Positions 1,703-61,980 of a stretch of DNA of 64,000 nucleotides are shown here, in pieces. Within the stretch, counting starts at the first letter, position 1, and the number at the start of each line of letters is the position of its first letter. The translations under genes and the position numbers were made by a program. This DNA is from Mustelus asterias (lineage: Eukaryota): the NCBI RefSeq assembly GCF_964213995.1, contig NW_027590121.1, positions 744,001-808,000 of the forward strand, read 5' to 3'. The notes beneath the pieces were generated by a model, which had not been told where the DNA came from, searched no databases, and was given only the letters and a program-made list of their open reading frames with translations.

Positions 1703-2190
1703 CTCTGCCAGATCTAGACGTGACGTTCGAGATTTTAGCCTGTGATTCCTCTTTCAATATCCTGTAAAACAAGTTGACACAAGTCATCAGTGTCAGTACA
1801 GGATCGAAATTCAGAACAGACAATTCCAGTTTCTATGGAACATTCTTTCTCTCTCATTCCCCAAAAGCTGTAAATCTCCATCCCACACACTCTCCCTCCA
1901 TTCTCACTCTGCTGTATCTAATATTCACCCTCACAATTCTCCTCAAGGTGCTGATTGAGGCTGATTGATAGATCCATGCTCACGGCTTCCTGTCCTGGAC
2001 ACAGAGAGCTGGAAATCTCCACGCAGGCGGCCAGACAGATATATGCCCATATGACTGGACTAAAAATGTGGAATATACAGACTGGATTCACGACCTTACC
2101 CTTCAGTTGCTGCAAGTCCCCAATTTCCCCCAGAATTAGAAAAGAAATGGAAAGGGGGAAACATTGATTTCCTCCCAGATGTTGTCCAGA
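1703..2190 (-). pseudogene. 5' part of a minus-strand ZNF gene (exon 2 at 1929-1994; exon 3 starts at 1761) interrupted by the Gypsy element
   Basis: The reverse complement matches the exon-2/intron/exon-3 start of the other ZNF cassettes (e.g. 14761-14830, 3695-3990). The match stops exactly at the LTR end. Confidence 0.75.
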
Positions 2191-2655
2191 GGCGGAAGGT
2201 TTAATCTGAAGCTCATTGGCCAGCTTCCGCATTATGGCGTCACAACAGAGCCCTGCCTGAATCAGCCTATAGGAATCTCGCTGCTCTCCGGTGACGTCAC
2301 TGCGGTTCCAATGCGCAGGCCCGGCCGCCCCCACCCACTTTTCCCCCTCCCCCTCCTCCAGCCAAGGTTTCCCGGCAACCGGCTGACGGCTCCGGCCAGA
2401 GCGAGAAGCCGCTCGGTGATCTCCTCCCGCCGGCCCGGACTGCGCATGTTCAAGGGAGAGGGAAGCTGCACATGTGCGGGGGAGGTGCCCACCCGCCGAC
2501 AGACATACTGAGATTTTGACCAATGGGAAGAGTTGGAGGACCGCAAGGAGTCTGGTCCTCCAGCCAATCAGAGCTCCCCATTGTCTGAATGCGGAAGTTA
2601 GTTGGCCAATGAGCTTCAGACCAAACCTCCTCCTCTCGGCAACATCTGTGAGCAA
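2090..2655. promoter_or_regulatory. CpG-rich, putatively bidirectional ZNF promoter module (copy 1)
   Basis: CpG-rich; contains TGACGTCA, CCAAT boxes, TGCGCATG, and the palindrome TGGAGGACC-N11-GGTCCTCCA (2534-2562). Donor-like GTGAGC at 2648. Flanked by divergent ZNF cassettes. Confidence 0.65.
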
Positions 2656-2694
2656 ATGTAAAGGTGTTCTGTCAGTTTATTAAGAGCAGGAGGT

Positions 2695-2733
2695 ATCGCT
2701 TCTCGGCCTTTTGGCGAAGATCAAGTGTAGTAT
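2695..2733 (+). pseudogene. U2 snRNA 5' fragment (39 nt, 3'-truncated)
   Basis: ATCGCTTCTCGGCCTTTTGGCGAAGATCAAGTGTAGTAT matches vertebrate U2 nt 1-39 with one mismatch (T>G). The downstream sequence is not U2. Confidence 0.85.
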
Positions 2734-2809
2734 TGACATGCTGTGCTTGGTTGAAGTCATTTTGTTACATTTTAGCTTCAATTGAAGCAGTTTTTAAAAG
2801 CGGCATCTC

Positions 2810-3535
2810 GGAATGCACAATGAATAGTCAGAGCCTCGGAGGTACAGAGGATCAGAGGGATCTTGGTGTGTATGTTCATAGATCTCTGGAGACAGTAGGA
2901 CAGTTACATAAGGTGGTTCGGAAGGCACATGGGATACTTGCCTTCATTAACCGAGGCATTGACTATAAGAGCAGGGAGGTTATGATGGAGCTATACAAAA
3001 TGCTGGTTGGCCACACTATGGTGGAGTACTGTGTGCAGTTCTGGTTGCCACACTATAGGAAGGATGTAATTGCACTGTAGAAGGTGCAGAGGAAATTCCC
3101 CAGGGTGTTGCCTGGGCTGGAGTGTTTCAGCTATCAAGAGAAACTGGATAGGCTGGCGTTGTTTTTCTTGGAGCAGAGAAGGATGAGAGGGACCTTATTG
3201 AGGTGTATAAAATTCTGAGGGGCACAGATGGAGGGGGACAGGAAGGAACTTTTCTCTTTAGTAGAGGGGGCAATAACCAAAGGCATGGATTTAAGTTCAG
3301 GGGCAGTAGGTTTATAGGAGATGTGAGGAAAAACCTTTTCACTCAGACGGTGGTGGGAATCTGGAACTCACTGCATGAAACATTTAAGAAGTATTTAGAT
3401 GAGCTCTTGAAATGCCATAGCATACAAGGTTACGCACCAAGAGTGGAAAATGGGATTAGAATAGAAAGGTGTTTGATGGTCGGCGCAAACACGATAGGCT
3501 GAAGGGCCTCTTTCCATGCTGTCAAACTCTATGAC
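2810..3535 (+). mobile_element. CR1-type LINE 3' fragment (degenerate)
   Basis: QRDLGVYVH, EYCVQFW, FTQ..VGIWNSL motifs with frameshifts; CR1-like 3' end. Confidence 0.8.
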
Positions 3536-4238
3536 CACCCTCACAGGCAGCAAGTTCAAGACTATCATCAATCACAACCCCCTGTATCTTCACTAACTGA
3601 AACAATCCATTTAAAACATTCTTAGTCGAGGAATATCATCATATTTCTGTTCGGCCGGAAGCCTGCATGGAGATTTTCAGCTCTCTGTGTCCAGGACAGG
3701 AAGCAGTGGGCATGGATCTATCAATCAGCCTCAATCAGCACCTTCAGGAGAATTGGGAGGGCGAATATTAGATACAGCAGAGTGAGAATGGAGGGAGAGT
3801 GTGTGGGATGGAGATTTACAGCTTTTGGGGAATGAGAGAGGAAAGAATGTTCCATAGAAACGAGAATTGTCTGTTCTGAATTTCTATGCTGTACTGACAC
3901 TGATTAATTTTTCAAACTCGTTTTACAGGATATCAGAAGGTGAGGATTTACAGACAAAAACTCAAAACAAACATCACGTCAGCATTCAATTTATCGGGAC
4001 CTGAATATCACTGACCTTTGATTCTAGAAGGTGAAATGTTTCACTGTTCTTTCTGCTTCAGAAGATTCTCAACATCAGTGTGACTGGAAAAGCACCGAGA
4101 CACACACACACATCCGAGTGAGAGTGTTCCAGTACACTGAGTGTGGAAAGAGCTTTAACCAGTTACACAGCCTGAAAATACATCGCAGCATTCACAGCGG
4201 GAGAGACTGTACCCGTGTTCTGTGTGAGATTTAACTGA

Positions 4239-5033
4239 TTGTTTAACCTGGAGAGTCACAAGGACACCCGCATCAGGGGAAAACCGTGGAAATGTGGGGA
4301 CTGTGGAAAGGGATCCAATGTCCCATCAGAGCTGGAAATTCATCGACGCAGTCACACTGGAGAGAGACCGTTCAGCTGCTCTGATTGTGGGAAGGGATTC
4401 ACTCAGTCATCCAGCCTGCAGAGGCACCAGCGAGTTCACACCGGGGAGAGACCGTTCACCTGCTCTCAGTGTGGGAAGCGATTCACTCGCATTTCCCACC
4501 TGCTGAGTCACAAAGTCACTCACACCAATGAGAGACCGTTTAAATGTACTGACTGTGGGAGTGGATTTAAAAGTTCTCGAGAACTGATGTCCCACCAACG
4601 CACTCACACTGTGGAGAGACCGTTCAGCTGCCCTGACTGCACAAAGAAGTTTAGAACGTCATTTCACCTGCGGGAACACCAGCGAGTTCATACTGGGGAG
4701 AGGCCATTCACCTGCTCTGTGTGTGGGAACGGGTTCACTCAGTTATCCATCCTGTTGAGACACAATCTCATTCACACCAATGAGAGACCCTTTAAATGTT
4801 CTGACTGTGGGAGCAGATTCAAAAGCTCACGGGATCTGGTGTCCCACCAGCGCATTCACACTGAGGAGAGACCGTTCAGCTGCTCTCATTGCACAAAGAG
4901 ATTTAAATGGTCATCTGCACTGCGGATACACCAGCGAGTTCACACTGGGGAGAGGCCGTTCGCCTGCTCTGTGTGTGGGAAGGAATTCACTCGGTCATCC
5001 AACCTGCAGAGACACCAACGGATTCACCAATGA
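4239..5033 (+). CDS. Tandem C2H2 zinc-finger protein, 9 fingers (family ATG lost; may be a pseudogene)
   Basis: Nine CxxC-x12-HxxxH units with TGERPF-type linkers. Exon-3 acceptor TTTTACAG ends at 3928. The paralogous start MEKPWKC reads RGKPWKC here, and the ORF start at 4239 is a TTG. Confidence 0.8.
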
Positions 5034-5217
5034 TTATCGAGTTGGTTTCTGCTGTTATTGCTGCTGTTAATCACATCCAGCACTGAACCACGTTCATTCT
5101 GACAGTTGGTGAAGTGGAAGGTTGAAGGGTTTTCTTTCTGCTGGACTGGCTGGTTTCACCCCTCTGCTTCCAATGAGCTGATGCTCTTTGAGCCTGGGAG
5201 AGCACATTTCCAATGAA

Positions 5218-5635
5218 ATAAGAACAAAGAAAATTACAGCACAAGAACAGGCCCTCCGAGCCTGCATTGATCATGCTGCCTGACTTAACTAAAACCCCCT
5301 ACCCTTCCGGGGACCATATTCCTCTATTCCCATCCTATTCATGTATTTGTCCAGATGCCCCTTAAAACTCACTACCGTATCCGCTTCCACTACCACCCCC
5401 GGCAGCGAGTTCCAGGCACCCACCACCCTCTGTGTAAAAAATCTGCCTCGTACATCTCCTTTAAACCTTGTCCCTCGCACCTTAAACCTGTGACTCTTCC
5501 ACCCTGGGAAAAAGCGTTTGACTATCCATTCTGTCCATGCCCCTCATAATATTGGAGACTTCTATCAGGTCGCTCCTCAACCTCTGTTGTTCCAGTGAGA
5601 ACAAACCAAGTTTCTCCAACCTCTCCTCATAGCTA
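5218..5635 (-). mobile_element. CR1 3' fragment inserted in the ZNF 3' UTR
   Basis: RGRFFTQRVVGAWNSLP motif. The UTR on both sides is contiguous in the paralogous UTR at 25160-25430. Confidence 0.8.
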
Positions 5636-12869: not shown

Positions 12870-13395
12870 CATTGGTGAACCCTTCAGCATGCAGGTCAGC
12901 GGGAGCACCCCCGCACATGCGCAGCTTCCCCTCTCCCTTGGACATGCGCAGGCCGGGGGAAGGGGGCGATCACCGAGCGGCTTCTCGCTCTGTCCGGAGC
13001 CGCCAGCCGGTTGCCTGGAAACCTTGGCTCGAGGAGGTGCAGGGGGAGCGGAACAATGGGTGGGGGCGGGGCTCCCGGGTCCGCGCGGCGGAGATCCCAC
13101 CCCCTGACCTTGATGCTGAGGGGTTGACCAATGGGAAGAATTGGAGGACCGGAAGGACTCTGGTCCTCCAGCCAATTAGAACGCGGGCTTTGTGTGAATG
13201 AAGATTGAGCTTCAGACAGACTGAAACTTCCTCTGTGCAACATCTGTGAGTAAAACACTTTCTTTTCTCCCCCTTTCCATTTCTTTTCTCATTCTGGGGG
13301 AAACTGGGGACTTGCAGCAACTGAAGATAGAGGAAGTGAATCCAGGGAGGCTGCAGACTCTGGAAAGGTTGGCCCAGGTTTCTCTCTCTCTCAAA
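12870..13395 (+). promoter_or_regulatory. ZNF promoter module (copy 2, rearranged) with exon-1 donor
   Basis: Homologous to 2090-2655 and 27365-28000. Palindrome at 13142-13170; AACATCT|GTGAGT donor at 13246. Confidence 0.65.
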
Positions 13396-15095
13396 CCAGA
13401 AAATGATCCATTTCTGCCCACTGTTGGCTGTTAGCCAATTTTCTATCCACGCCAATATGTTATCCCCACAGCATGAATTTTTATTTGCTGCAATAATCTT
13501 TAATGTTTCACCTCATCAAATGTCTTCTGGAAATCTAAGTACAGCACATCCACTGATTCCATTTATCCAATTCCCGATGGGGAATTTTAGAAAATTAAAC
13601 AACACATCAACGATCTCACTCTGTTAAGACCCGAGAATGGAGCCCAGCAGGACCCGAGGACTCATCAGCCCACAGCTCCAACAGTTTGCTGAGGACCACT
13701 TCCCTGGTAATTGTGCTTTTTCAGAGTTCATCCCACACTTCTGTTTTCTGATTTCCAGCTGTTTCTGAGTTTTAACTGTATCCTCTATTGTGAAGACCGA
13801 GGCAAAATACTTGTTCAATTAATTTCCCAGCTCCTTATTTTTCATTGTTAATTGCTAGACTCACTTTCTATAAGACTCTTAAGAAATAAAGTAGGGCAAG
13901 TGAATGAAGTGTCAGTCGGAGAGCACTTTGTGTCCAGTGACCAGAACACTATTAGTTTTAAAATAGCTCTGGAAAAAGATAGGAGTGATCCACAGGTTAA
14001 GGCCCTAAACTGGAGCAGGGCCAATGTTGTGGGCATTAGGCAGGATCTAGCAGATGTTGATTATGTGAGTCTGTTTGAAGAGAAAGGAATGACTGGCTAA
14101 TGGGAGGCTTTTAAAAGTGTGATATCAAGAGTCCAGGAGAAGTATATTCCTGCTCAGATGAAGGGAAAGAATGGTAAACACACAGCCATGGAGCATTAAA
14201 CTTGCCTCGCAGGGCCACTCATATCAGCGCAAAGGCAGCTGCTTTGTGAGACTGCTGGCAGCACAGACAACTCCGAGATAAGAGTGCCCTGAGAAGAGAG
14301 ATTCATTGTGAAGGCTCAGGGACGGTTGATAAGATGTAAGAATTCTATTATTTTAATGAACATTCTTTCCTCTCTCGTTCCCCAAAAGCTGTGAATCTCC
14401 ATCCCACACACTCTCCCTCCATTCTCACTCTGCTGTATCTAATATTCACCCTCCCAATTCTCCTGAAGGTGCTGATTGAGGCTGATTGACAGATGCATGC
14501 TCACTGCTTCCTGTCCAGCAGTCAAAAATCCTAAGAATTCAGAGCTGCAGTTGGCCATTCAGCCCATCGAACTGCCTCAAACATTCATGGAGAATTGGCC
14601 GATCTACCTCAGCATCATTTCCCACACTATCCCCTAGATAGAGAGCGAATAGAGCCAACGTTTCGAGTCTGCAGAGAGGAAGGAATGTTCAATAGAAACT
14701 TGAATTGTGTGTTCTAAATTTCTATGCTGCACTGACACTGATGACTTCTGTAAACTCCTTTTACAGGGTATCGAAAGAGGAATCACAGGCTGAAATCTCA
14801 AACGTCACATCTAGATCTGACAGAGTCATATTCCTTGGGACCTGAATATCATCGGCCTTTGAATCTTTAAGGAGAAATGATTGTCCGGTCTGGTGACTTG
14901 AAAAGATTTCAAACATCAGTGTGACTGGAAAAGTGCCAACACACTGCCACACTGGAGTGAGTGTGTTCCAGTGCACTGAGCTTGAACCAGTTACACAGCC
15001 TGAATAAATATCACACCATTCACAGCGGGGGTGGGGGGACTGTTCTGTGTGTGGACGAGTCTTCAACTGAAGAGAGAGGAAAGGACACCTGCACC

Positions 15096-15602
15096 ATGGA
15101 GAAACCATGGAAATGTGGGGACTGTGGGAAGAGGTACAGATACCCATCTCAGCTGGAAGTTCATCGGCGCAGCCACACTGGGGAGAGACCATTCACCTGC
15201 TCTCAGTGTGAGAAGGGATTCACTGATTTATCCACCCTGCGGACACACCAGCGAGTTCACACTGGGGAGAGACCGTTCACCTGCTCTCAGTGTGAGAAGG
15301 GGTTCAGTCAATTAGCTAACCTGCAGAAACACCAGCGAGTTCACACTGGGGAGAGACCATTCACCTGCTCTCAGTGTGGGAAGGGATTCACTCAGTTATC
15401 CAGCCTGCAGACGCACCAGCGACTTCACACTGGGGAGAGGCCATTCACCTGCTCTCAGTGTGAGAAGGGGTTCAGTCAGTTATCCAGCCTGCAGACACAC
15501 CAGCGAGTTCACACAGGGGAGAGACCATTCACCTGCTCTCAGTGTGGGAAGGGGTTCAGAGCTTCATCCCACCTGCTGAGACACCAAAACGCTCACGAGT
15601 GA
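15096..15602 (+). CDS. Tandem C2H2 zinc-finger protein, 6 fingers
   Basis: ACCATGG start (MEKPWKC), six intact fingers, exon acceptor TTACAG ending at 14766. Confidence 0.88.
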
Positions 15603-16919
15603 TTCCAGAGGTTGGATTCTGCTGTTATTGTTTCTGCTCTCAATTACATCCAGGACTGCATTTTGTTCATTCTCACAGTTGGTCAATGGGGAGGGTCGGA
15701 GGGTTTCTTTCTGCTGGACTGGCCGGTCTCATGACTTTGCCTCCAGTGGGCTGGTGCTCTTCGAGTCTTGTTGTGAATACCTGGTTTCAAATTTCACAAG
15801 GATCACAGAGTGACAGGATGTTAGGAAGTTAAGAGATATTTAGTCAGCATTTCTGTTTGAAACCTCCCAAATGCCCATCCAATTTCCTTTGTAATTGTTT
15901 ATTGTCTCCACTTCCTCCACCCTCGTAGGCAGCGAGTTCCAGGTCATTACCATTCGCTGTATCAGAATATTCTTCCTCACATCCCCCCCTGCATCTCTGA
16001 TCCAAAACCTTAAATCTGTGACCCCCTCATCCTTGTCCCGTCAGCTAATGGGAACAGCTTTTCTTTGTCCACCTTATCTAAACCTGTCAGAATCTTGTCC
16101 ACCTCTATCAAATCTCCCCTCAACCTCCTTTGCTCCAAGGGGAACAACCCCAGCCTGACATTGACAATAAAGAACAAACTAACAGAATATGTTAATACCT
16201 GAAATCAAATGGGAATGTCTAATTTCTGTTTTAAAGAAATCATGAATATATTGTCCTGGACAATAAAGGGATTTGAATAACTCAGCTTGGGTGCAGTTGA
16301 ATGAAATGTATCAATCTCGCATCCACCCACAGTCTAGAGGAAGTGTGGAATGTGTAGCTGGAAATCCCTCCCTAACAGCACTGTGGGTGTACTTACACCT
16401 TCGGCATTGCAGCAGTTCAGGAAGGCAGTGTTGGCGCTGATCGTGGCCGAAGCAGCTACAGACAGCCACATATTCTGTTATAACTGAAGGACTGCAGATT
16501 AAATGCGAGGCATTATGGGACTGGACTATCTTGACCACATTCCTGTGACTGCTCAGTTTCTGCAATCATGAACCATTAAAGCTGCTTAGCTGGGCCCCGA
16601 CAGAGGACCTGGTGAGAATATTTACTCAGAATGAGTTAGAATTAAACTTATCCCAGGACCGGCTGGTGTTCAGTGGCTGAGATTCCCGAATCTGTAAAAA
16701 GGGGGTCTGACCAATCAACAAACAGTGGTAGGTAGTTAGTTCAGAAGCGTTCTCATGCATTATTTGAATTATTTTATCATAAATTTGTGATAAGACCTGT
16801 GAGGGACTTGTAACCCAATAGTTGTTGAATTGACGGTAAACTCCAAGTAGCACTGGGCTGAAAAGGGGGTCTGACCAAGAAGTGAAGTGATCTCAGGCAT
16901 TGTTTAAATTACATCATCA

Positions 16920-17455
16920 TTGGCCAACTTCCCCTTTGTGATGTCACAGTGGAGCCATCCTTGAATCAGCCAATAGGAATCACTGTGCTCCGCGGTGACG
17001 TCTCCGGGTTCCAGTGCGCAGGCCCGGGCGAGCGGACGCGGGAGCCCCGCCCCCACCCATTGTTCCCCTCCCCCTGCACCTCATCGAGCCAAGGTTTCCA
17101 GGCAACCGGCTGACGGCTCTGGCCAGAGCGAGAAGCCGCTCGGTGATCTCCCCCTCCTCCCGGCCCAGGTGTTCTGAGGTGTTGACTAATAGGAAGAGTT
17201 GGAGGACCAGAAGGACTCTGGTCCTCCAGCTGATCAGAGCGCCGGCTTTACATGAATGAAGATTGAGCTTCAGACAGACTGAAACGTCCTCCTGTCTCCA
17301 ACATCTGAGAGTAAAACACTTTCTTTTCTCCCCCTTTCCATTTCTTTTCTCATTCTGGGGGAAATTGGGGACTTGCAGCAACTGAAGGGAATGAAGTGAA
17401 TCCAAGGAGGCTGCAGACTCAGGAAAGGTTGGCCCAGGTCTCTCTCTCTCTTAAA
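16920..17455 (+). promoter_or_regulatory. ZNF promoter module (copy 3), exon-1 donor mutated
   Basis: Homologous module with an internal deletion. The donor reads GAGAGT at 17307 instead of GTGAGT. Confidence 0.6.
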
Positions 17456-18405: not shown

Positions 18406-19045
18406 GACAGGAAGCAGTGAGCATGGATCTGCCAATCAGCCTGAATCAGCACCTTTCAAAGAATTGGCAGGGTGAATATTAGATACAGCAGAGTGAGAAT
18501 GGAGGGAGAGTGTGTGGGATGGAGATTTACAGCTTTTGGGGAATAAGAGAGGAAAGAATGTTCCATAGAAACTAGAATTGTCAGTTCTGAATTTCTATCC
18601 TGTACTGACACTGGTGAATTTTGTAAACTCCTTTTACAGGGTAGATTTGCAGAAGGTGAGGATTTACAGGCAGAAATCTCAAATCAAACAACACATCAAG
18701 ACCTGACAGAGTTATTCATTTGATCAGGACCTGAATATCATTGGCCTTTGAATCTAAAAGGAGAAATCTTTTCCTGTTCTGTCTGCTTCAGAATTCTTTT
18801 TTAACATAAATGTGACTGAAAAATCACTGAAACACAGATACACCCAAGTGAGAGTGTTCCAGTGTACTGTGTGGGAAGAGATTTAACCAGTTGCACAGCC
18901 TGAAAATACACCGCAGCATTCACAGCGGGGAGAGACTGTACCCGTGTTCTGTGTGAAATTTAACTCATTGTTTAACCTGGAGAGTCACAAGAACACCCGC
19001 ATCAGTGGGAAACTGTGGAAATATGGGGACTGTGGGAGGCGATTC
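18406..19045 (+). pseudogene. Truncated ZNF pseudogene
   Basis: Exon 2 (18406-18471), then exon 3 from ~18640 to [14 protein letters not shown], where the sequence switches to CR1. Confidence 0.8.
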
Positions 19046-22000
19046 AGATGTACACTCGGTCCCCTCCTCCAGATCGTCTATGTATATGGTAAACAGTTGA
19101 GGATCCAGCATCGATCCCTGCAGCACGCCACTAGTCACTAACTGCCAACCAGAAAAGCACCCATTTATTCCGACTCTCTGCTTTCTGTTAGATAGCCAAT
19201 CCTCAATCCACGCTAACACTTTACCCCCAACTCCGTGTACCCTAATCTTCTGCAGCAACCTTTTGTGAGGCACCTTATTGAACACCTTCTGGAAATCCAA
19301 AAACACCACATCCACCGGTTCCCCTCTGTCAACTGCACTCGTTACATCTTCATAAAAATCCAGTAAATTCGTCAAGCACGACTTTCCCTTCATGAATCCA
19401 TGCTGCGTCTGATTGATCGAACCATTTTTTTCCAGGTGTCCTGCTATTTCTTCTTTAATGATGGATTCCAGCATATTTCCCAACTACGGACGTTAAGCTA
19501 ACCAGCCTGTAGTTACCCGCCTTTTGGCTACCTCCTTTTTTAAACAGTGGCGTCACATTAGCTGTTTTCCAATCAGCCGGCACTTCCTCAGAGTCCAGCG
19601 AATTTTGATAAATTACAACCAACGCATCTGCTATTACTTCTGCCATTTCTTTCAGTATCCTGGGATGCATTCCATCCGGGCCCAGGGACTTGTCTACCTT
19701 TAGTCCCATTAGCCTACCAAGCACTACCTCTTTAGTAATAGTGATCGTTTTAAGGACCTCACCCTCTACAGTCCACGACCATCAATTTTCGGTAAGCTAT
19801 TTGTGTCCTCTACCATGAAGACCGACACAAAAAACTTATTTAAGGCCTCGGCCATTTCCTCGTTTCCCATTATTAAATCCCCCTTCTCATCTTCTAAGGG
19901 TCCAACATTTACTTTAGCTACTCTTTTCCTTTTTATATATTTGTAAAAACTTTTACTATCAGTTTTTATATTTTGTGCTAGTTTAGTTTCATAATCTATC
20001 TTTCCTTTCTTTCTCGCTTTCTTAGTAGTTCTTAGTTGTTTTTTTAAAGATTTCCCAATCTTCTAATTCCCCACTAGTTTTGGCCACTCTGTACGCATCG
20101 GTTTTTAATTTAATACTCTCCTTTATTTCCTTAGTTATCCACAGCTGGTTATCCCTTTTCTTACATTCCTTTTTTATCACAGGAATATATTTTGCTGAGA
20201 ACTGAGAAAAATCTCTTTAAAAATCCTCCACTCTTCCTCAACTGTTCCACCAACTAGTCTGCGCTCCCAGTCTACATGAGCCAATTCTGCCCTCATCCTA
20301 TTGTACTCCCCTCTGTTCAAGCAGAGGACACTGGTTTGGGACCCTACTTTCTCTCCCTCCATTTGTATTAGAAATTCAACCATATTGTGATCACTCATTC
20401 CAAGAGGATCCCTCACAAGAAGATCATTAATTTTACCTGTCTCATTACACAGGACCAGATCCAGGATAGCTTGCTCCCTCGTAGGTTCTGTAACATACTG
20501 TTCGAGGAAACTATCCCGACAGCATTCTAAGAACTCTTCCTCAAGTCCACTGCGTCCGACTTGAGTCAACCAATCAATATGCAGGTTAAAATCCCCCATG
20601 ATTATTGCTGTTCTGTTTTTGCTCGCATCCAGTATTTGCTTGTTTATAGCCCGACCCACCTCAAAGTTATTATTTGGGGGCCTATAGACGATGCCCACAA
20701 GTGACTTTCTCCCCTTACTATTCCTTATCTCCACCCACAACGATTCCACATTCTGCTCCTGAAAGCCTATATCGTCTCTCACTACCGCCCTGATGTTATC
20801 CTTAATTAACAGAGCTACCCCACCTCATTTTCCTTCCTGTCTATCCTTCCGAAATGTCTGATACCCCTGGATATTCAGTTCCCAGTCCTGGTCACCCTGC
20901 AACCACGGTTCTGTAATGGCCACTAGATCATACCCATTTGTACTGATTTGTGCCATCAACTCATTCACTTTGTTTTGAATGCTACGTGCATTCAGGTAAA
21001 GTGTCTTTATGCCAGCCTTTATATGGACCCGATTTGTTAGTGCATTCTTTTGATTGCACGCTCTGTCCCTACCTGTCACAAACTGGTTATCCTTCCCCAG
21101 ACCATCTCCTTGCACTGCGTTAACCACCTCCCTTCTTGTGTTTGTCACCTTTTTTACTCTGCCTGAGCCCTTGCCTCCTTTAACTAGATGAATGTCCTCA
21201 TCATCAACCTTCACTTGTACCCTCTCCTTTACCTTTGATTTTGTAATTCCCCATACCCCTGAACCCTCCCCCCCACTATTTAGTTTAAAGCCCTATTTAC
21301 AGCCCTGGTTATACGATTCGCCAGGACTCTGGTCTCAGCACGATTCAGACGAAGACCATCCCAGCGGAACAGGTCCCCTCTTCCCCAATACTGGTGCCAA
21401 TGTCCCATGAATTCAAACCCATTCCTCCCACACCAATCTTTGAGCCACACATTAACCTCCTTAATCTTATTGACCCTGTGCCAATTCGCTTGTGGCTCAG
21501 GTGGTAATCCAGAGATTACCACCTTGTTGGTTCTGCTTTTTAATTTGGCTCCTAGCTTTTCATACTCCCTCTGCAGAACCTCTGTTCCTGTTCTGCCTAT
21601 ATCGTTGGCACCTACGTGGACCACTACAACTGGATTCTTACCCTCCCACTCCAAGTTCCTCTGCAGCCCAGATGAGATATCCTGGACCCGAGCACCAGGC
21701 AGGCAACACAACCTTCGGGATTCTCGATCCTGGTCACAGAGAACAGTATCAATACCCCTAACTACACTATCCCCAATTACCATTACATTTCTTTTTTCTT
21801 CCTCCCCCTGAATGGCTCCCTGTACCACGGTGCTGTGGGCAGTTTGCTTGTCCTCCTTGCAGTCCCCGTTCCCGTCCACACTGGGAGTAAGAATTTCAAA
21901 CCTGTTGTACAGATTCAGGGACTGAGGCTCTTGCAACTCTACCTTCTGGATCCCACTTCCTGCCTCACTCGCAGCCACACCCTCTTGTCCCTGACTCCCG

Positions 22001-25426: not shown

Positions 25427-26017
25427 TCACTTGTGAATTCGCTGGTGTCTCTGCAGGCTGGATAACTGAGTGAATCCCTTCCCACACTGAGAGCAGGTGA
25501 ATGGCCTCTCTCCAGTGTGAACTCGCTGGTGTGTGAGAAGGGTGGATGTTTTACTGAATCCTTTCCCACACACGGAGCAGATAAATGGCCTCTCTCCGCT
25601 GTGAGCTCGCTGGTGTTCCTGCAGTGTGGATGAATGAGTGAATTCCTTCCCACACACATGGCAGGTGAATGGTTTCTCCCCAGTGTGAACTCGCTGGTGT
25701 TCCTGCAGGTTTGATAACCGACTGAATCCCTTCCCGCACTTGGAGCAGGTGACAGGCTTCTCCCCGGTGTGAACCCGCTGGTGATCCTGCAGGGTGGACG
25801 AATGTGTGAATCCCTTCCCACACACACAGCAAGTGTACGGTTTCGCCCCGGTGTGAACTCGCTTGTGTCTCAGCAGGTTGCTTGACTGAGTGAAACATTT
25901 CCTACACTCAGGGCAGGTGAATGGTCTCTCCCCGGTGTGGCTGCGTCGATGGGTTTCCAGCTCAGATGGGCACTGACATGCCTTCCCACAGTCCCCACAT
26001 TTCCACGGTTTCTCCAT
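25427..26017 (-). CDS. Tandem C2H2 zinc-finger protein, 7 fingers
   Basis: MEKPWKC start and seven intact fingers. Exon 2 at 26544-26609 and the exon-1 donor at 27397-27402 are intact. Confidence 0.9.
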   Translation of the reverse strand: MEKPWKCGDCGKACQCPSELETHRRSHTGERPFTCPECRKCFTQSSNLLRHKRVHTGAKPYTCCVCGKGFTHSSTLQDHQRVHTGEKPVTCSKCGKGFSRLSNLQEHQRVHTGEKPFTCHVCGKEFTHSSTLQEHQRAHSGERPFICSVCGKGFSKTSTLLTHQRVHTGERPFTCSQCGKGFTQLSSLQRHQRIHK

Positions 26018-27070: not shown

Positions 27071-27364
27071 TATAAGATGGACAGGTTAAGTTGATTGGCC
27101 ATGCTCAATTGCCACTTCGTGTCCCAGGATGTGTGGGTTGGGGGGGATGAGCAGGTTAAATCCGTCGTACTACTGGGAGAGGGCCTGGGAAGAATGCTCT
27201 GTTGGAGAGTCAGTGCAGACTTCATGGGCCGAAAGGCCTCTTTCTGCACTGTCGGGATTCTGTGACTCGAGTTACTCAATAGACTCCTTCTGTGCGGCAA
27301 TGAGTTTATGACTGGAAATATATAATGTAGCAACAGTAATATATTACACAACTAGAAATAATAA

Positions 27365-28000: not shown

Positions 28001-28048
28001 TCTGGGAGCCTGCATGGAAATTTTCAGCTCTCTGTGTCCAGGACAGGA

Positions 28049-39912: not shown

Positions 39913-41555
39913 CTGTTTTACACAGCACATGGTCATTCTGAATGGAGAATCTCTGAGTTGTACAATTCACATCATTCAGGAGCCAGATTGTCTGCTCAGA
40001 AAGAGGAAGGTTTCTGTGACACCAATGAAAAGCAACACACACACACTCACAGACACCCTCACACACAGAGTCTCACACCCTGCAAATTATCTCCTGTCAC
40101 TTTTAGTCGTTTTGAAATAAATCCTGAATGAACTATAAAATCATTCAGAAGGACTTGTTGAGATTCCCCTGAAAGACATCTGTACTGTTCATTTCACTCC
40201 CTGTAGTTGTGATTTCCATATTCTCGCCACTCTTTGTGTAGAGAAATTTATCCTGGATTTCCTATAGGATTTCTTAGTGACTGTTTTATATTTATTGTCT
40301 CCAGTTTCCCAGTAACTTCATTGCAGTGTTAATCTAAGCCTACTTGTGACTAATAAATAAACTTTACTTTTTGCTCTTCCCCACAAGAGGAAACACTATT
40401 TCTGTATCTAAGCATTTTATAAATTTGAGGACCTCTGCTCAGGTTACCCCTCAGCCTTCATTTCTCAAGAAAGAAGAACTAGCCTGTCAATCCTTTCCTG
40501 ATAAAAAAAACACACACGTTTTGAAAATCATTTATGGGATGTGGGCATTGCTGGCTTGGCCAGCATTTATGGCTAATCCCTGATTGCCCTTGAGAAGGTG
40601 GTGGTGAGCTGCCTTCTACATTAAAATCTCATCATATAAATCCTCTCCTTTCCAGTGCCTGGATATTTTTTTTAATAATACGGTGACCAGAATGGTATGC
40701 AGTGGTCAGTAAGATTCTTGATCAGAGAGTCACAGATTTTCCAAAAGTGGTTTGAGTTTATCCATGGTTTTAAATTAGATTCTTAGGAAGCAACAATTTA
40801 AAAATGATGCATAATAAACAGGGGGAAAAAAAGAAGACCTATGGCAGGTGAGTAACTGAGGCCCCAGCACTGATCCTGCGTTACCCAAATAGTCACTGCC
40901 TGCCAGTTGGAAAAAGACCCGTTTAATCCTACTCTTTGTTTCCTGTCTGCCAGTCAGTTTTCTACCCATCTCAGTACAACAGCCCCAATCCCATGTGCTT
41001 TACTTTTTGTGAAGAAGTTGCTGTGTTGGTGGACGAGGGGAATCGGGTTCACGTTATCTATCTCAGGGCATAATCATCAACAACTTGTATTTACACAGAG
41101 TGTTGTGGGGCTGGAGGAGGTTACTGAGATACTGAGGAACTTTGTTTTATTCATTTTTACGGAATGTAGGCGTCACTTGCTGGGCCGGCATTTCTTGCCC
41201 ATCTCTAACTGCCCTCCATTTCAGAGGGCATTTGAGAGTCAACCACATTGCTGGTCTGGAGTCACATGTAGGCCAGACCAGGTAAGGACGGCAGGTATCC
41301 TTTTCCAAAGGACGTTACTGAACCAAATGGGTTTTTACGACAATTGATTAAAGGTTGAGGTTTGTCATTAGACTTTTAATTGAAGATTTTAATTGAATAC
41401 AAATTTCACCATCGACTGTGGTGGGATTCGAACCTGGGTCCCCAGAGCCTTACCCTGAGTCCAGTGATAATTCCACTGTACCACTGCCTCCCCTATTCAT
41501 CCAATTGTTATTGTTTATCTCAGGGCGCAGAAACAACAGAATCCAACTTTGCCGG

Positions 41556-42761
41556 TCACACATGAAGTCGTCTATGTTTCAGCAGGCTGTAATACTGATT
41601 AAATCCCTTCCCACACATGGAGCAGTTGAAAGGTTTTGCCCCAGTGTGAACTCGCTGGTGTCTCTGCAGGCGGGATGGATCAGTGAATCCCTTCCCACAC
41701 AGGGAGCAGGTGAATGGTTCTGTCGCAGTGTGAGCTCGCTGGTGTTTCAGCATATAGGATGAATCAGTGAACCCCTTCCCACACACAGAGCAGGTGAACG
41801 GCTTCTCCCCGGTGTGAATGCGTTGGTGTCTCAGCAGGCCAGATGACTGAGCGAATCCCTTTCCACACACAGAGCACAGGAACGGCCTCTCCCCGGTGTG
41901 AATGCGATTGTGTTTCAGCAGATCATCACTTCTTTTAAAGGTCTTATTGCATTCTGAGCATTGAAAAGGTCTCTTATCAGAGTGAATGTGTTGGTGTTGA
42001 TTGCAGTAGGAAAACTGAGCAAATCTTTTGCCGCAAATGGAGCAGGAGAACGGCTTCTCCCCTGTGTGAGTGCGGCGGTGTCTCCGGAGGCTGGATGACT
42101 CCGTGAAAGCCTTCCCACACACGGAGCAGCTGAATGCCTTCTCCCCGGTGTGAATAGGCCGGTGACTCAGCAGATGCTGCAAACAAGTAAATGCTTTCCC
42201 ACACACAGGGCAAACGTATGGCCTCTCCCCAGTGTGAGTGCCCTGGTGTCTCAGCAGACTAATCCTTCTTTTGAAGGTCTTCTCACATTTAAAGCATTTA
42301 AAATGTCTCTTCTGAAAATGAATCTGTTGGTGAACGGTGCAGTGGGAGGACTGAGTGAATCTCTTCCCACACTGGGAGCAGCTGAATGGCCTGTCCTTGG
42401 TGTGAACTTGTTGGTGCTCAGTGAGATGCACTGAGTCGCTAAATGACTCCCCACAGTGAGAGCAGCTGAACGGTCTCTCGTGTGTGTGAAGGAGCTGGTG
42501 CTCTGCAAGGCGGGAGGACTGGCTGAACCTCTTCCCGCAGTGGGAGCAGCTGAACGGTCTCTCGTCAGTGTGAAGGAGCTGGTGTTGGGCCTGTTCCTCA
42601 GAGGTTTCAATGCTTTGCCCAGAGTCAGAGCTTTGAAGAGGCTTCTGAATAATGTGATCGAGTTGGTGAGCCAGCAGGTTGGACGAACACATGAATTTCT
42701 TCCCACACACGGAGCAGGTGAATGAACTCTCACTATTGCGAGTTCGCTGTCGTGTCAGCAT
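41556..42761 (-). CDS. Tandem C2H2 zinc-finger protein, 13 intact + 1 degenerate finger (divergent subfamily)
   Basis: Long open frame with first ATG at 42761. After acceptor TTTTGCAG the exon starts at 42943. The true start may lie in an upstream exon. Confidence 0.88.
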   Translation of the reverse strand: MLTRQRTRNSESSFTCSVCGKKFMCSSNLLAHQLDHIIQKPLQSSDSGQSIETSEEQAQHQLLHTDERPFSCSHCGKRFSQSSRLAEHQLLHTHERPFSCSHCGESFSDSVHLTEHQQVHTKDRPFSCSQCGKRFTQSSHCTVHQQIHFQKRHFKCFKCEKTFKRRISLLRHQGTHTGERPYVCPVCGKAFTCLQHLLSHRPIHTGEKAFSCSVCGKAFTESSSLRRHRRTHTGEKPFSCSICGKRFAQFSYCNQHQHIHSDKRPFQCSECNKTFKRSDDLLKHNRIHTGERPFLCSVCGKGFAQSSGLLRHQRIHTGEKPFTCSVCGKGFTDSSYMLKHQRAHTATEPFTCSLCGKGFTDPSRLQRHQRVHTGAKPFNCSMCGKGFNQYYSLLKHRRLHV

Positions 42762-42973
42762 GTTTTCCAGCTGATCAATCCCTCCCCACAGGAGGAGCAA
42801 GGAAACAGATTCTCACCAGTTTCCAACTGAGATGGTCAATTAAATCCCTTCAGATGTACAAATCTTCAAATCCCAATGAATTGATTGACTCTGTCTGACG
42901 TGAGATTTGTTTGTCCAGACTGCAAATCCTCCTCTTCTATTTCCTGCAAAATAAGTTTACAAAGAATTACGTG

Positions 42974-43410: not shown

Positions 43411-44349
43411 ATATCTATCCTGGACTGACAGTGATGACTTTTGTAAATTCCCTTTGCAGGATATTGGAAAGGAGGATTTACAGCAAGAAAACACAAACCA
43501 AACATCACGTTGAGATCTGACAGTCACTCGGATCATTAGGAGCTGATTGTTATTGTCTTTGAACAGGGAAGGAGAATTGTTTGTTCTGTCTGTGACAATA
43601 CACAAACAGGCCATTCGGTTTATCGAGTCTGTACTGGAGTTTATCCTCCACATGAGTCTCCTCTCATTCTGATCACCACATCTCAGCTTTTCAGTTGATT
43701 TTTCCAATCCCTTTTCTCTCATAGGCTCATATATTTTCCTTTTGAAAGCATCTAAAGTATTTGAGTCAACCACTTCCAGTCGCAGTGAGTTCCATATTCT
43801 AACAACGTCTGAAGAAAGAAACATCTCCTATTTTCCTGTTTGATTTATTTGTTGTCTGTTCATGGTTCCCAGTAATGGAAGAACCAACAAGTGGAAACAT
43901 TCCATTCACATCCCCCTACTTATCCCATTCAGAAAGTCCGTATCAGAAGAGACAACATTTTTCTCTTGGTTTGAGCTTGTGTGTAAATCCTCAATTTCTA
44001 ACCCCCTGTAACAAAAAATATCCAAAATCCATCACGATAGAAAATCCAGGTACAAGTAATTCAGAAAGCTATTGTTTGTTATGAGGGGAATGGAGTAAAA
44101 GCAGGGAAGTTATGTTTCAGTTGCACACGGTGAGTCTGTATCTGGAGCAATGTCTACATTATCGATTTCCTTATTTAAGGAAAAATATAAATGCATGAGA
44201 AGTTCATAGAAGGTTTAGTCGACTAACACCTGGAATAGGTGGATAGTCTGATGAGGAGCAGTGAGACAGTCTCTGCTCGAGTTTAAAAGAGTAAGAGGCA
44301 ACTTAATTTAAACCTTTCAGATCCTGAAAGGTCTTGGATGTGGAGAGGA

Positions 44350-58846: not shown

Positions 58847-59755
58847 ATAAGAAGTCTCACAACACCAGATTAAAGTCCAACAGATTTATTTGGTAGCAAA
58901 ATCCACTAGCTTTCGGAGCGCTGCTCCTTCGTCAGGTGAGTGGGAGTTCTTTTCATAAACTCAATTTACAAAATAATTATTGGAATGCGAGTCTTTACAG
59001 GTAATCAAGTCTTAAAGGTACAGACAATGTGAGTGGAGAGAGGGTTAAGCACAGGTTAAAGAGGTGTGTATTGTCTCCAGACAGGACAGTTCATGAGATT
59101 TTGTAAGTCCAGGCAAGTCGTGGGGATTACAGATAGTGTGACATGACCCCAAGATCCTGGGTGAGGCCGTCCTCATGTGTGCGGAACTTGGCTATCAGTC
59201 TCTGCTCAGCGACTCTGCGCTGTCATGTGTCATGAAGGCCACCTTGGAGAACGCTTACCCGAAGATCAGAGGCCGATGATCTTCAGGTAAGCATTCTCCA
59301 AGGCGGCCTTCACGACACACGACAGCGCAGAGTCACTGAGAAGAGACTGATAGCCAAGTTCCGCACACATGAGGACGGCCCCAACCGGGATCTTGGGGTC
59401 ATGTCACACTATCTGTAATCCCCACGACTTGCCTGGACTTGCAAAATCTCATGAACTGTCCTGTCTGGAGACAATACACATCTCTTTAACCTGTGCTTAA
59501 CCCTCTCTCCACTCACATTGTCTGTACCTTTAAGACTTGATCCCCTGTAAAGTCTCGCATTCCAATCATTATTTTGTAAATTGAGTTTGTGTCTTTATAT
59601 GCCCTGTTTGTGAAAAACTCCCACTCACCTGATGAAGGAGCAGCACTCCGAAAGCTAATGGATTTTTTTACCAAATAAACCTGTTGGACTTTAACCTGGT
59701 GTTGTGAGACTTCTTACACTGTTTACCCCAGTCCAATGCCAGCATCTCCACATCA
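58847..59755. mobile_element. Long palindromic Penelope derivative (~430-bp arms)
   Basis: Arms fold back at ~59270. CTGCTGAATATC is duplicated at 58835-58846 and 59756-59767. Hammerhead motifs at 58904-58938 (-) and 59626-59662 (+). Confidence 0.9.
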
Positions 59756-60074
59756 CTGCTGAATATCTCCAAGATTTATTCTCTTTATTCCAGATACAAT
59801 CTCTACAGAGTTTTGTTCCAGTACATGTAGGTTAGGGGGATTAGTGGGTAAATATGGAGGGATATGGGGTAGGGCCTGGGTGGGATTGTGGTCGGTGCAG
59901 ACTTGATGGGCCAAATGGCCTCTTTCTGCACTGTAGGGTTTCTATGTTCTATTGTTTTATTGTATCGAGATTAGAAACACAGGCTGACTAGTTCGGAGCC
60001 AGTTTGAATCAGGCTGCGTGTTGGATGCAGAACTCAGTCCCTGGCCTCCTATGGCGACCAGAACTGGACGCAGT

Positions 60075-61050
60075 CGGCCGCATTTGGAAGACTGCGTCCA
60101 GTTCTGGTCGCCACACTACCAGAAGGACGTGGAGGCTTTGGAGAGAGTACAGAGGAGGTTTACCAGGATGTTGCCTGGTATGGAGGGGCTTGGTTATGAG
60201 GAGAGATTGGGGAAACTGGGGTTGTTCTCCTTGGAAAGACGGAGGATGAGGGGAGACTTAATAGAGGTGTATAAAATTATGAAAGGCATAGATAGGGTGA
60301 ACGGTGGGAAGCTTTTCCCCGGGTCGGTGGTGACGTTCACGAGGGGTCATAGGTTCAAGGTGAAGGTGGGGAGGTTTAACACAGATATCAGAAGGACATA
60401 TTTTACACAGAGGGTTGTGGGGGCCTGGAATGTGTTGCCGGGCAAGGTGGTGGAGGCGGACACACTGGGAACGTTTAAGACTTATCTAGACAGCTATATG
60501 AACGGAGTGGGAATGGAGGGATACAAAAGAGTGGTCTAGTTTGGACCAGGGAGCGGCGCGGGCTAATTGTTCTTTGTTTCTCATTTCAAGGCTTCATTCT
60601 ATGATCATCTTGCTGGTGCCAGTACAGAGCGAGACTGCGGATAGTTGGGAACCTGTCTCGGGGGCAGGGAATTCATATGGTGTTTGTAAAACAGAAGTGG
60701 AAATGAATAGGGTTGGGAAGCATTTTCTGATCAGGGCCAGTGTGATCTCCTGGACTCGTTTCGATCGCCTCAGGGGGTCGGAGAGGAATTTCCCAGATTT
60801 TTTTCCCCATATTGGCCCTGGGGTTTTCACTCTGGGTTTTCGCCTCTCCCTGGAGATCACATGGTCTGGAATGGGGGGGTGGGGGTGAGTTAATAGGTTG
60901 TGATGAACAAAGCATCGTAGCTGTGAGGGACAGCTCGGTGGATAGGATATTAGGATGTAGATAGGCTGGAAAATTGGGCGGGGATCCTGGATTCAGGATT
61001 CAATCCTGGACCGGGGAGCGGCGCGGGCTTGGAGGGCCGAAGGGCCTGTT
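60075..61050 (+). mobile_element. CR1 3' fragment with an insert in its 3' UTR
   Basis: RPHLEDCVQFWSP...FTQRVVGAWNVLP; direct repeat at 60542-60564 and 61007-61029. Confidence 0.8.
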
Positions 61051-61278
61051 CCTGTGCTGTATTGTTCTTTGAGTGTTTTTGTTATTGTTGCTTCAGTCTG
61101 AACTCTATTTATAACCTGTCTCTGTGGGCTCTCTCTCAATCCACTTTTTCTCTGTTTCAAATCAATTTCACAGGAACTAGGATGAGACGATTTGCAGTGA
61201 GGAAACAAGAAATAAATATCATATCAGAATCTGACAGTCATCTCATTTATCGTAACTGAATATCAGTGGATTTTGAAC

Positions 61279-61980
61279 ATGGAAGGAAAACGCACCGTTC
61301 ACAGTGGAGAGAAACCATACATGTGTTCTGTGTGTGGACGAGACTTCAGCCGATCATCTGGCCTATCGAGACACAAGTGCAGTCACTCCATGGAAAAACT
61401 GTGGAAATGTGTGGACTGTGGAAAGGAATTCAATTACCCATTCCAGCTGAAAATTCATTGGCGCATTCACACTGGGGAGAGGCCATTCACCTGCTCTGAG
61501 TGTGGCAAAGGATTTACTGAGTCAGGAAATCTGGTGTCACACCAGCGCATTCACACTGGGGAAAGGCCATTCATCTGCTCAGAGTGTGGGAAGGGCTTCA
61601 CTCGGTCATCCAACCTGCTGACACATCAGCGGGTTCACACTGATGAGAGGCCTTTTAAATGCTCAGACTGTGGGAAGTGCTACAAAAGTTCTGATGCACT
61701 CATGTCCCATCAACGTATTCACACTGACGAGAGACCATTCAGGTGCTCTCACTGTGGGACTAGGTTCAGGCATTCATGTAACCTCATTGTACACCAGCGC
61801 ACCCACACTGGGGAAAGGCCATTCACCTGCTCTCAGTGTGGGAAGGGATTCAGTCAGTCCTCCAATCTGCTGACACACCAGCGAGTTCACACTGGGGAGA
61901 GGCCATTCATCTGCTCTGAATGTGGGAAGGGATTCACTCAGGCATTCCACCTGCTTAGACACCAAATAATTCACAAGTAA
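61279..61980 (+). CDS. Tandem C2H2 zinc-finger protein, 8 fingers
   Basis: AACATGG start, eight intact fingers, acceptor TTTCACAG at ~61172, AATAAA at ~62097. Confidence 0.9.

Follow-up and report, generated by a model that had tools for sequence, protein, structure and literature searches.

Introduction

ZNF512 and ZNF512B, zinc-finger proteins that are not known to carry KRAB, recruit SUV39H. Both have been reported as heterochromatin starters at repeats and pericentric regions (as cited in PMC13458389). According to PMC8896011, ZNF146 (OZF) consists of fingers only, carries no KRAB and binds LINE-1 ORF2, and disruption of ZNF146/OZF or ZNF507 changes the transcriptome modestly or little. 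In zebrafish, the FiNZ-ZNF family has about 700 members (Wells et al. 2023, PMC10547256); positive selection is seen in FiNZ clades, and knock-down derepresses transposons (PMC10547256). For the KRAB-like ZNFs of ray-finned fish, the use of TRIM33 has been proposed (PMC11603059). Across animals, the numbers of ZNFs and retroelements correlate, independent of accessory domains (PMC10547256).

Loss of KRAB-domain gene families is enriched among cartilaginous fish (PMC8455134), and they hold some of the larger tabulated ZNF repertoires, with 475 to 3,586 open frames (PMC10547256 supplement). Shark ZNF numbers were already known from this tabulation (Wells et al. 2023 supplement, PMC10547256). For the anatomy of the shark family, a literature search beyond whose reach lay most subscription papers and part of the PMC10547256 supplement found no publication. 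Here we describe the anatomy of this predicted finger-only family, which we consider well supported, starting from a 64,000-nt stretch of the Mustelus asterias genome (the window).

Results

Between positions 1703 and 61980 of the window we counted ten C2H2 zinc-finger loci, where an earlier note made from the sequence had claimed at least nine. As that note had stated, intact, stop-containing and transposon-destroyed copies lie side by side: five loci keep an intact ATG frame, one has no start ATG, one carries a premature stop and three are cut by transposons. The single architecture assigned to most loci was borne out for the 66-nt segment, present in seven of ten, but not for the MEKPWKC start, present in only four; two loci, with 13 and 8 fingers, have different starts and no 66-nt segment.

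Locus 0 (1703..1994, minus strand) is a remnant with a 200-nt block, an acceptor at 1761/1762 and the first 59 nt of the last exon; an LTR retrotransposon, whose end lies at 1702, truncates it. Between it and locus 1 lies a bidirectional, CpG-enriched promoter and non-coding first-exon region of the type we call P (2082..2656, unstranded), containing a candidate minus-strand donor at 2353. Locus 1 (plus strand) has its homogenised non-coding block at 3695..3895, the first 66 nt of which, with GC as donor, had been described as 'exon 2'. Its last exon (3930..5220) comprises a leader of putatively decayed fingers (3930-4274), an open frame of nine fingers (4275-5033, plus strand) in which AGG replaces the start ATG, and the shared 3' UTR. 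Type P promoters also lie upstream of locus 2 (12870..13345) and locus 3 (16917..17404). Locus 2 (14358..16872, plus strand) combines a partly inverted block (14358-14515), an acceptor at 14767 and an intact six-finger frame (15096-15602), and has its 3' UTR in common with locus 5. Locus 3 (18406..19051, plus strand) keeps block and leader, and a LINE inserted at 19051 cuts its first finger.

Loci 4 and 5 stand head to head around a common bidirectional type P promoter (27363..27977). Locus 4 (25241..26609, minus strand) has its block from 26609, an acceptor at 26375, an intact frame of seven fingers (25427-26017) and the shared 3' UTR; locus 5 (28291..30647, plus strand) has a block, an acceptor at 28522, six fingers (28866-29372) and a 3' UTR, with a premature TGA at 29190-29192 within finger 4. 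Locus 6 (35467..36875, minus strand) has its block from 36875, an acceptor at 36641 and an intact nine-finger frame (35467-36285), and inserted repeat DNA replaces its stop codon and 3' UTR. A second promoter type lies upstream of it (37520..37940; CpG observed/expected 0.98). The AlphaFold model of the locus 6 protein has nine ordinary fingers and no further fold. Locus 7 (41528..42943, minus strand; intact frame 41556-42761, 13 fingers) belongs to another subfamily and has neither the 200-nt block nor the tryptophan finger, a shark-specific finger with invariant W, D, P, S and E whose scaffold is common to horn shark and which none of 117 non-shark matches carries. Locus 8 (43411..43596, plus strand) is a transposon-cut remnant that retains the end of the intron and the beginning of the last exon. 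Locus 9 (61175..62008, plus strand; intact frame 61279-61980, eight fingers), also without the block, starts one finger earlier, so that the tryptophan finger comes second.

CpG enrichment of the promoters, as previously proposed, was evident (observed/expected 0.55-0.98 vs 0.43 for the window); they fall into two types and often serve head-to-head gene pairs. The common 3' UTR was recognised by its motif at six of the seven full-length loci but has been lost by insertion in the nine-finger gene at 35467-36285. Pfam returned finger families only on three arrays and no match on three promoter-region frames, and the nearest solved structures by sequence are arrays from proteins of the KRAB zinc-finger class (KZFPs), e.g. 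ZFP568.

We used 156 anchored copies in 1.26 Mb of cluster DNA, a sample that is not independent, its choice having partly followed the regions that best match locus 1. An in-frame stop lies 13 codons upstream of the start at 105 of the 156 anchors, and only two keep more than 90 open codons ahead of the start. Because this stop precedes the start, the cluster proteins are predicted to be tandem fingers only, of the OZF type as a descriptive class. The promoter motif and the acceptor are only 356-367 nt apart in 23 of 94 genes. An exon 1 peptide in frame with the leader was rejected, since the frame of the first-exon ATG differs between paralogs. One contig joins exon 1 to the last exon (2353 to 1761); it belongs to another organism, its run is RNA only by guess, and the letters between its two sides are not known. 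The 15 matches listed (606 more exist), repeat-dominated and from contigs of other organisms with RNA again guessed, contained no further splice joint. One contig covers the leader and the ATG with no splice between them.

The leaders of 48 genes contain a mean of 2.8 upstream ATGs, which could hinder translation; their depletion (0.38-0.40 of expected) does not discriminate, as finger-coding DNA reaches 0.44. A leader hairpin present in the majority sequence was rejected, because the variants among 86 distinct copies mostly break its pairs, with no double compensation among the commonest pair types. In the layout that we infer, a non-coding first exon within the shared CpG promoter would splice to one large last exon, the first 350 nt of which would be decayed fingers, and translation would begin at an ATG arisen in a former TGEKP-type linker.

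The supposed exon 2 was not supported: the 66-nt segment has no codon periodicity, and its conservation does not break off at the presumed intron border but extends some 135 nt further. The segment is the head of the 200-nt homogenised non-coding block and bears no coding signature, and we rejected it both as a coding exon and as a conserved upstream frame. Among the 67 parsed of 73 distinct copies, its borders read AG in 48 and GT in 60, and four copies have 10-nt deletions. Contig depth, taken against a DNA run, is as low on the segment as on the intron and equally low on the joint-supported first-exon part; such depth cannot rank gene parts. The block was also rejected as a structured RNA (z = 0.16; no Rfam match). 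Seven distinct insertion junctions fall within -13 to +2 of the block start, the others being spread over spacer and block. Gene conversion or recombination would keep the block alike among copies.

The earlier note saw no KRAB-, SCAN- or BTB-like frame, and we likewise found neither KRAB nor SCAN in the cluster DNA; more generally, its effector-less reading is supported by the stop that closes the frame shortly before the start in most copies. A profile search gave no KRAB-like sequence in the 1.26 Mb (own profile, best E = 3 over 44,540 frame pieces). This profile is tetrapod-derived and, as a positive control, recovers 83 proteins, of which 69 are non-seed. PF01352 matched none of 76 scored candidates, its positive control being without a match as well. 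When non-finger segments, 207 in all and taken from ZNF proteins outside sharks, were compared with the 1.26 Mb, 25 had a match, in every case only to transposon proteins, degenerate fingers or antisense finger frames. SCAN gave 146 matches with 150 of 604 candidates scored, scattered and many with stops; C71, C89 and the sampled clusters of C12 and C23 had none, and masked tetrapod segments gave no SCAN-like match in the 1.26 Mb. BTB was absent from Pfam scans of seven window frames and has no room in 23 of the 94 genes. For the FiNZ layout, a purely structural test turned up no conserved upstream coding exon, FiNZ-like or other. Twelve longer shark proteins contain no KRAB or SCAN, and most resemble fused gene models. 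An unrecognised effector, which had been offered as an option, is not supported in the form of a separate exon: up to the last exon, the 94 genes share no family-wide segment besides the promoter and the 200-nt block.

The start motif (exact 22-mer) occurs 2,641 times genome-wide, and since the reversed control occurs 0 times, this count is not due to chance. Counting the promoter and 'exon 2' cassette genome-wide, a check named in the earlier note, gave 875 exact promoter 32-mers and 1,338 exact block 26-mers; such counts may be inflated, as some of the near-identical copies on unplaced contigs may be haplotype duplicates. The 264 kb around the window hold 39 arrays. Of the 156 anchored copies, 81 are intact, 39 are broken and 36 lack an ATG at the anchor. 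The duplication unit is a multi-gene segment and not the three-exon, one-gene cassette that had been envisaged; the duplicated segments have variable ends, include transposon remnants and are 95-98% alike. An orphan T-cell-receptor-like V pseudogene is co-duplicated, in seven copies (97-100%) on cluster contigs. The closest relative lies in another gene for 761 of 820 fingers, and the parts of these genes have mosaic histories. These results support a clustered birth-and-death ZNF family in the shark, in agreement with the earlier proposal.

Next to this turnover, selection on the fingers was observed. Over 20 independent recent pairs, pN/pS was 0.18 for the F/L core, 0.29 for the linker, 0.41 for contact residues and 0.42 for other positions, and another comparison of recent duplicates gave 0.35-0.38 for contact residues. 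The finger scaffolds are under purifying selection, which speaks for translation; C and H are invariant by construction of the finger pattern, so this does not count towards it. For contact residues, nine older pairs gave 1.56, and omega is near 1 between subfamilies. Codon models of three families placed omega at about 0.45 for non-contact residues and from 0.7 to about 1.5-2 for contact residues, with marginal values above 1 (2 x delta lnL about 4.2 and 3.0) in two families that overlap and may align non-orthologous fingers. The 814 distinct fingers carry 469 fingerprints, with entropy highest at helix positions -1, 3 and 6, a pattern that fits DNA readers. The base-contacting residues vary much, with marginal signs of positive selection. 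Their retention in recent duplicates (pN/pS 0.41) does not resemble an arms race still in progress.

Discussion

With somewhat better than even confidence, we regard these genes as a birth-and-death C2H2 family, thousands strong, whose proteins, predicted to be bare finger arrays, would probably target repetitive DNA, transposons for instance, and use those same fingers to recruit silencing factors. The suggestion of transposon recognition comes from what is known of KRAB-ZNFs, FiNZ-ZNFs and ZNF146, by analogy, together with the published cross-species correlation. A more elaborate form, which we consider improbable, is a system of at least two thousand genes that silences repeats without a separate effector domain and in which the N-terminal tryptophan finger serves as a co-repressor dock. 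There, older N-terminal fingers would have been lost into the 5' leader, leaving the tryptophan finger at the exposed end, and reshuffling of downstream fingers between genes at the homogenised blocks would make new specificities. It is unlikely, though worth serious weight, that expansion was mostly passive, recombination-prone regions copying anything and selection only keeping expressed arrays folded and harmless, most members being without a specific target; the V pseudogene copied along, the variable ends and transposon remnants of the segments, the 75 of 156 anchors broken or without ATG and the contact residues near omega 1 between subfamilies all fit this account. That the proteins are instead sequence-specific regulators of host genes, their own promoters, satellites or RNA seems to us quite unlikely. 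The anatomy and selection data fit it equally, the family-wide shared promoter and intron blocks would permit autoregulation, and fingers bind RNA and protein too (PMC8896011), but thousands of lineage-specific, fast-turnover copies would suit moving targets better than they would a fixed gene network, and the correlation with retroelements (PMC10547256) points the same way.

We give very little credence to a distant or unrecognised effector exon spliced onto the arrays like KRAB or FiNZ exons. Two of 156 frames are open from acceptor to fingers, AG dinucleotides occur within 36 nt before the ATG, and contigs from two putative RNA runs go from the acceptor region into unplaced sequence, for which neither the sample nor the genome gave a match. 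An NCBI shark model joins a 33-residue first exon to such an open frame, yet this peptide is frameshifted and stopped in the close paralog. Against such an exon also stand the 94 promoter-to-acceptor intervals without a family-wide candidate, the upstream side closed off by head-to-head partners, the negative KRAB searches and the contig unspliced across the ATG. A mobile element carrying the finger array is largely refuted and, in our view, scarcely credible: the copies number in the thousands, lie on several chromosomes and have near-identical non-coding blocks, which recalls one, but they are clustered rather than dispersed, keep their introns, encode no transposase or reverse transcriptase in the unit, and share segments without fixed ends that span several genes and old insertions.

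If a finger-only family of such size does police transposons, an effector domain is dispensable, and a third vertebrate lineage becomes available for testing why tandem ZNF families have grown independently in many animals. If it does not, the family is a large example of recombination-driven expansion. The near-identical starts and leaders would permit family-wide knock-down, as for FiNZ genes.

Compared with known systems, the shark family resembles the KZFPs of tetrapods and lobe-finned fish in its clustered tandem C2H2 arrays on one last exon with TGEKP-type linkers, its birth-and-death turnover, and its conserved scaffold on which the base-contacting residues vary. It differs in having no KRAB, a closed upstream frame, a start codon in a putatively decayed linker and more numerous copies (2,641 start motifs); KZFPs bind transposons, with TRIM28-type repression and TRIM28-dependent H3K9me3. 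With the FiNZ-ZNF genes of cyprinid fish the shark family shares a KRAB-independent giant-cluster expansion and, as predicted, a two-exon layout, but in FiNZ genes a separate exon encodes a conserved N-terminal domain of 28 residues, where the shark family has no conserved upstream coding exon, and FiNZ clades are under positive selection, for which the shark evidence is marginal. ZNF146/OZF and ZNF507 are single genes, in contrast to thousands here; ZNF512 and ZNF512B, each a conserved single gene, have split fingers as well as other motifs and do not form tandem-array families. The ray-finned KRAB-like ZNFs are alike as a candidate KRAB/TRIM28 substitute in a lineage without KRAB/TRIM28, but they carry a KRAB-like domain, of which the tetrapod-derived profile found none in the shark clusters.

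Zinc-finger loci in the window

A six-frame scan of the window found seven C2H2 finger arrays and three remnants, and these ten loci bear out the cluster of tandem zinc-finger (ZNF) genes, intact beside broken, that the earlier note had described. Intact ATG frames with 6, 7, 9, 13 and 8 fingers occur at five loci, one locus has an open 9-finger frame whose first codon is AGG, one array has a stop inside finger 4, and the remnants are interrupted by an LTR element, a LINE or other repeats, whose proteins were identified. The LTR retrotransposon end at 1-1702 (integrase frame 42-1343) cuts the first remnant (locus 0), and LINE pieces at 19051-22239(-), with esterase-like ORF1, endonuclease and reverse transcriptase, cut a second (locus 3); another copy of such a LINE, with pieces of the same three parts, lies at 50771-52411(-). 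A tandem repeat of an 87-nt unit (99.5% identity, 38982-39360) is flanked by Penelope-like pieces. Among named proteins, the nearest belong to sharks: Mustelus asterias (81%) and Heterodontus francisci (65-80%).

For comparison we used a 1.259-Mb sample, made up of the window, G000:C89:744001-808000, and 1.195 Mb of further DNA from the same 3.68-Gb genome, in which copies are not independent because part of it was picked around the best matches to the 9-finger array at 4275-5033(+). The proposed shared architecture held in part: the window promoter blocks are CpG-enriched, but they fall into two types, the MEKPWKC start is found at only 4 loci and the 66-nt segment at only 7. Of the 36 pairs of adjacent arrays in the surrounding 264 kb, 10 are head-to-head; the gap has a median of 4.1 kb in these and of 7.0 kb in tail-to-tail pairs.

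Both arms of the type P promoter, one of the two types, can finish in one 78-nt block (875 exact 32-mers), located at 2082-2160, 13268-13345, 17329-17404 and 27900-27977, and the block region holds three different candidate donors. The 3' UTR motif (5040-5110, 15610-15680, 25350-25420 and 29380-29450), whose first 21 nt served as a search anchor, matches the majority at 0.88-0.94 over its first ~45 nt in 62 non-redundant genes with no periodicity, and is present in horn shark gene models as read-through tails; it is an old shared 3' UTR element.

Duplication of multi-gene segments

Pieces of window 1703-17169, each 2-12 kb long and free of an insertion present at 8695-11420, are repeated with 95-98% identity at over 15 sites, introns and old insertions included and with variable ends. 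The duplication unit is thus not a one-gene cassette, as had been supposed, but a segment of several genes. The histories of the fingers and of the leader (the 5' stretch of the last exon before the start ATG) are decoupled (Mantel r = 0.13, p = 0.14). Of 820 fingers taken from 105 non-redundant arrays, 761 are most closely related to a finger of a different gene. Together with the recurring segments, these observations argue that multi-gene segments duplicate and that their parts probably swap.

The insertion at 8695-11420, a Penelope-like retroelement, has a reverse transcriptase frame that is open over 696 residues; it is missing from paralogous segments and is a young insertion. A T-cell-receptor alpha/delta-like V segment (63060-63370(-), Pfam V-set) has an in-frame stop near its start, followed by a heptamer, a 23-nt spacer and a nonamer. 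Of the 40 copies scored from 204 candidates, seven (97-100%) are on contigs of the zinc-finger clusters and the remaining 33 (88-91%) on different contigs; the segment is an orphan carried along by segmental duplications.

Start codon and probable absence of an effector

The last exon begins ~350 nt upstream of the ATG, and its leader translates into decayed fingers, in pieces; at the 8-finger array 61279-61980(+) one leader-position finger is still intact. The start ATG occupies the place of TG in a TGEKP-type linker. In 105 of 156 copies the frame meets a stop exactly 13 codons before the start; in 2 of the 156 it stays open up to the acceptor, which counts against the finger-only reading. 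A genome search with Pfam KRAB gave no match, but its control likewise matched nowhere, so we built our own KRAB profile from 20 segments of fetched tetrapod proteins. This profile recovers 83 proteins (69 non-seed), and its best match in the 1.259-Mb sample had E = 3. Genome matches to SCAN were scattered, with none in the sampled clusters, and we take them to be LTR-element capsids.

Between promoter motif and acceptor, the only family-wide segments in 94 genes are promoter tails and a 200-nt non-coding block, and in 23 of these genes just 356-367 nt separate the two. First-exon ATGs vary in frame between paralogs, and the first-exon peptide of the NCBI model P0003 is frameshifted in a close paralog. 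The closed upstream frames, the lack of SCAN in the sampled clusters and the profile search, akin to a check that the earlier note had suggested for spliced products and run here on the genomic sample, agree with its remark that no KRAB- or SCAN-like ORF is visible. Judged from sequence, the predicted shark proteins very probably consist of fingers only.

AGG replaces the start ATG in eight copies, the array at 4275-5033(+) and seven paralogs, all of them open. They hold 32 non-synonymous versus 25 synonymous variant alleles (ratio 0.37, p = 3e-4), and a CTG in good context lies 11 codons upstream. These copies may thus initiate at a non-AUG codon, although conversion from ATG-bearing paralogs could yield an identical pattern.

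The 66-nt segment and the 200-nt block

The 66-nt segment, formerly read as exon 2, is the head of the 200-nt block. We aligned 36 non-redundant genes, out of 78 with the segment among the 156 copies, and mean pairwise identity was 0.94 in the segment, 0.89 in the next 168 nt, and 0.74-0.81 in the leader and likewise in fingers 1-2. These genes showed neither codon periodicity in the segment (0.973, 0.959, 0.971) nor a drop in identity at its donor. Of 67 parsed copies, 48 have AG immediately before the segment (an AG 5 nt further in might substitute) and 4 carry a 10-nt deletion; an ATG within the segment has good start context. No joint of the segment to the last exon was found among 249 contigs from three putative RNA runs of other organisms, in which unspliced single contigs span the segment's borders. 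One contig of putative RNA from another organism joined the promoter region (2353) directly to the acceptor (1761), a joint absent from a DNA run. The segment may be a minor alternative exon, and the three-exon, one-gene cassette gives way to duplicating multi-gene segments.

Private variants are about equally dense in the block (138 in 200 nt) and the leader (273 in 356 nt), whereas shared variants are scarce in the block (61 vs 331). For the 29 nearest pairs, divergence is 1.7% across the block and 1.9% across the leader. In 21 segmental duplicates the block carries 19 variants over 201 sites, a density no lower than that of the adjoining LINE remnant (0.117 per site; p = 0.18 and 0.48); constraint of 4.5-fold would have left only 5 (p = 3e-6). 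Since variation among duplicates is not reduced and shared variants are scarce, the data favour homogenisation by conversion or recombination. Mild constraint may contribute as well, given that block and leader distances are correlated (Mantel r = 0.38, p = 0.004), that the only four differences between locus 0 and the contigs of two other organisms fall where locus 0 deviates from most of the family, and that young redundant copies perhaps escape selection.

Penelope-like elements have inserted twice, independently and in opposite orientation, within ~10 nt of the block start (17891-18402 and 28048-28284); the latter insertion is a hairpin with a duplicated target. At locus L118, near G000:C784:74270, what we take to be a tRNA-like stretch is inserted between the promoter block and the 200-nt block.

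Selection on the fingers

Across 20 independent recent pairs, whose frames were picked as open with a slight bias towards function, pN/pS was 0.18 in the F/L core, 0.29 in linkers, 0.41 at contact positions and 0.42 elsewhere, each below 1 at p < 1e-4, which shows purifying selection on finger scaffolds. Contact pN/pS reached 0.9-1.05 in scaffold-matched fingers, and nine older gene pairs gave a pN/pS of 1.56. When codon models were fitted to three families, non-contact codons had an omega close to 0.45. The contact codons came out at about 0.7, 1.5-2 and 1.5, and comparing these with omega = 1 on a coarse grid gave 2 x delta lnL values of 0.2, 4.2 and 3.0. Specificity is diverse, with 469 fingerprints across 814 fingers and 118 of 142 arrays distinct. 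Young copies keep their specificity and retain their contact residues, a pattern unlike that of an arms race in progress.

In the first finger, a W precedes the first cysteine, and the copies compared were chosen by that W. Helix positions 1, 2 and 5 are P, S and E in 85-100% of 78 distinct copies, in which positions -1, 3 and 6 vary, and the motif occurs in 8 of 13 fetched shark proteins versus 0 of 117 non-shark ones. Modelling predicts an ordinary finger fold, and ZFP568 has a similar helix. If the whole family has a docking site in common, the only candidate is the conserved face of this finger; with contact positions that vary, the finger may simply read DNA.

Family size and relation to known systems

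There are 39 arrays within the 264 kb around the window. A genome-wide count of promoter and "exon 2" parts, also suggested earlier, gave 875 exact promoter 32-mers and 1,338 exact 26-mers of the 200-nt block, beside 2,641 exact start motifs; each reversed control gave 0, and the counts are perhaps inflated by haplotype duplicates. Matches are bunched on contigs C12, C16, C23, C71 and others. The 156 family copies in the 1.259-Mb sample comprise 81 intact, 39 broken and 36 without ATG at the anchor, some of which start further upstream. Long NCBI shark ZNF models (P0015, P0017, P0019, P0021, P0033, P0052, P0068, P0079, P0081, P0115 and P0116) resemble fusions of neighbouring family members linked by transposon-derived filler, and public annotation therefore likely undercounts and misdraws the family.

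With its anatomy, numbers, turnover, duplication mode and scaffold selection shown here, the family is real, very large, predicted to be finger-only, and little described. Its genes would yield transcripts of two exons, translated from the linker ATG, and the finger arrays would bind DNA; by analogy, their targets may lie in repeats and silencing factors may be recruited through the fingers. We put transposon targeting, argued from that analogy and a point on which the earlier note outran the data, at about even chances, and consider the whole explanation, a birth-and-death finger-only family likely binding repeats and silencing through its fingers, slightly more probable than not.

The supplement of Wells et al. 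(PMC10547256) lists between 475 and 3,586 ZNF frames for sharks and rays; by word search, "shark" is absent from the main text as accessible, and sharks are unmentioned in the accessible text of their preprint (10.1101/2022.11.29.518450). The accessible parts of PMC10208646 and 10.1101/2025.06.08.657570 hold nothing on the shark finger family, and the literature searched yielded no published description of its anatomy. KRAB families are over-represented among gene families lost in cartilaginous fish, according to the part of PMC8455134 consulted. The shark family at most works like the KRAB-ZNFs or the FiNZ-ZNFs, but is a member of neither.
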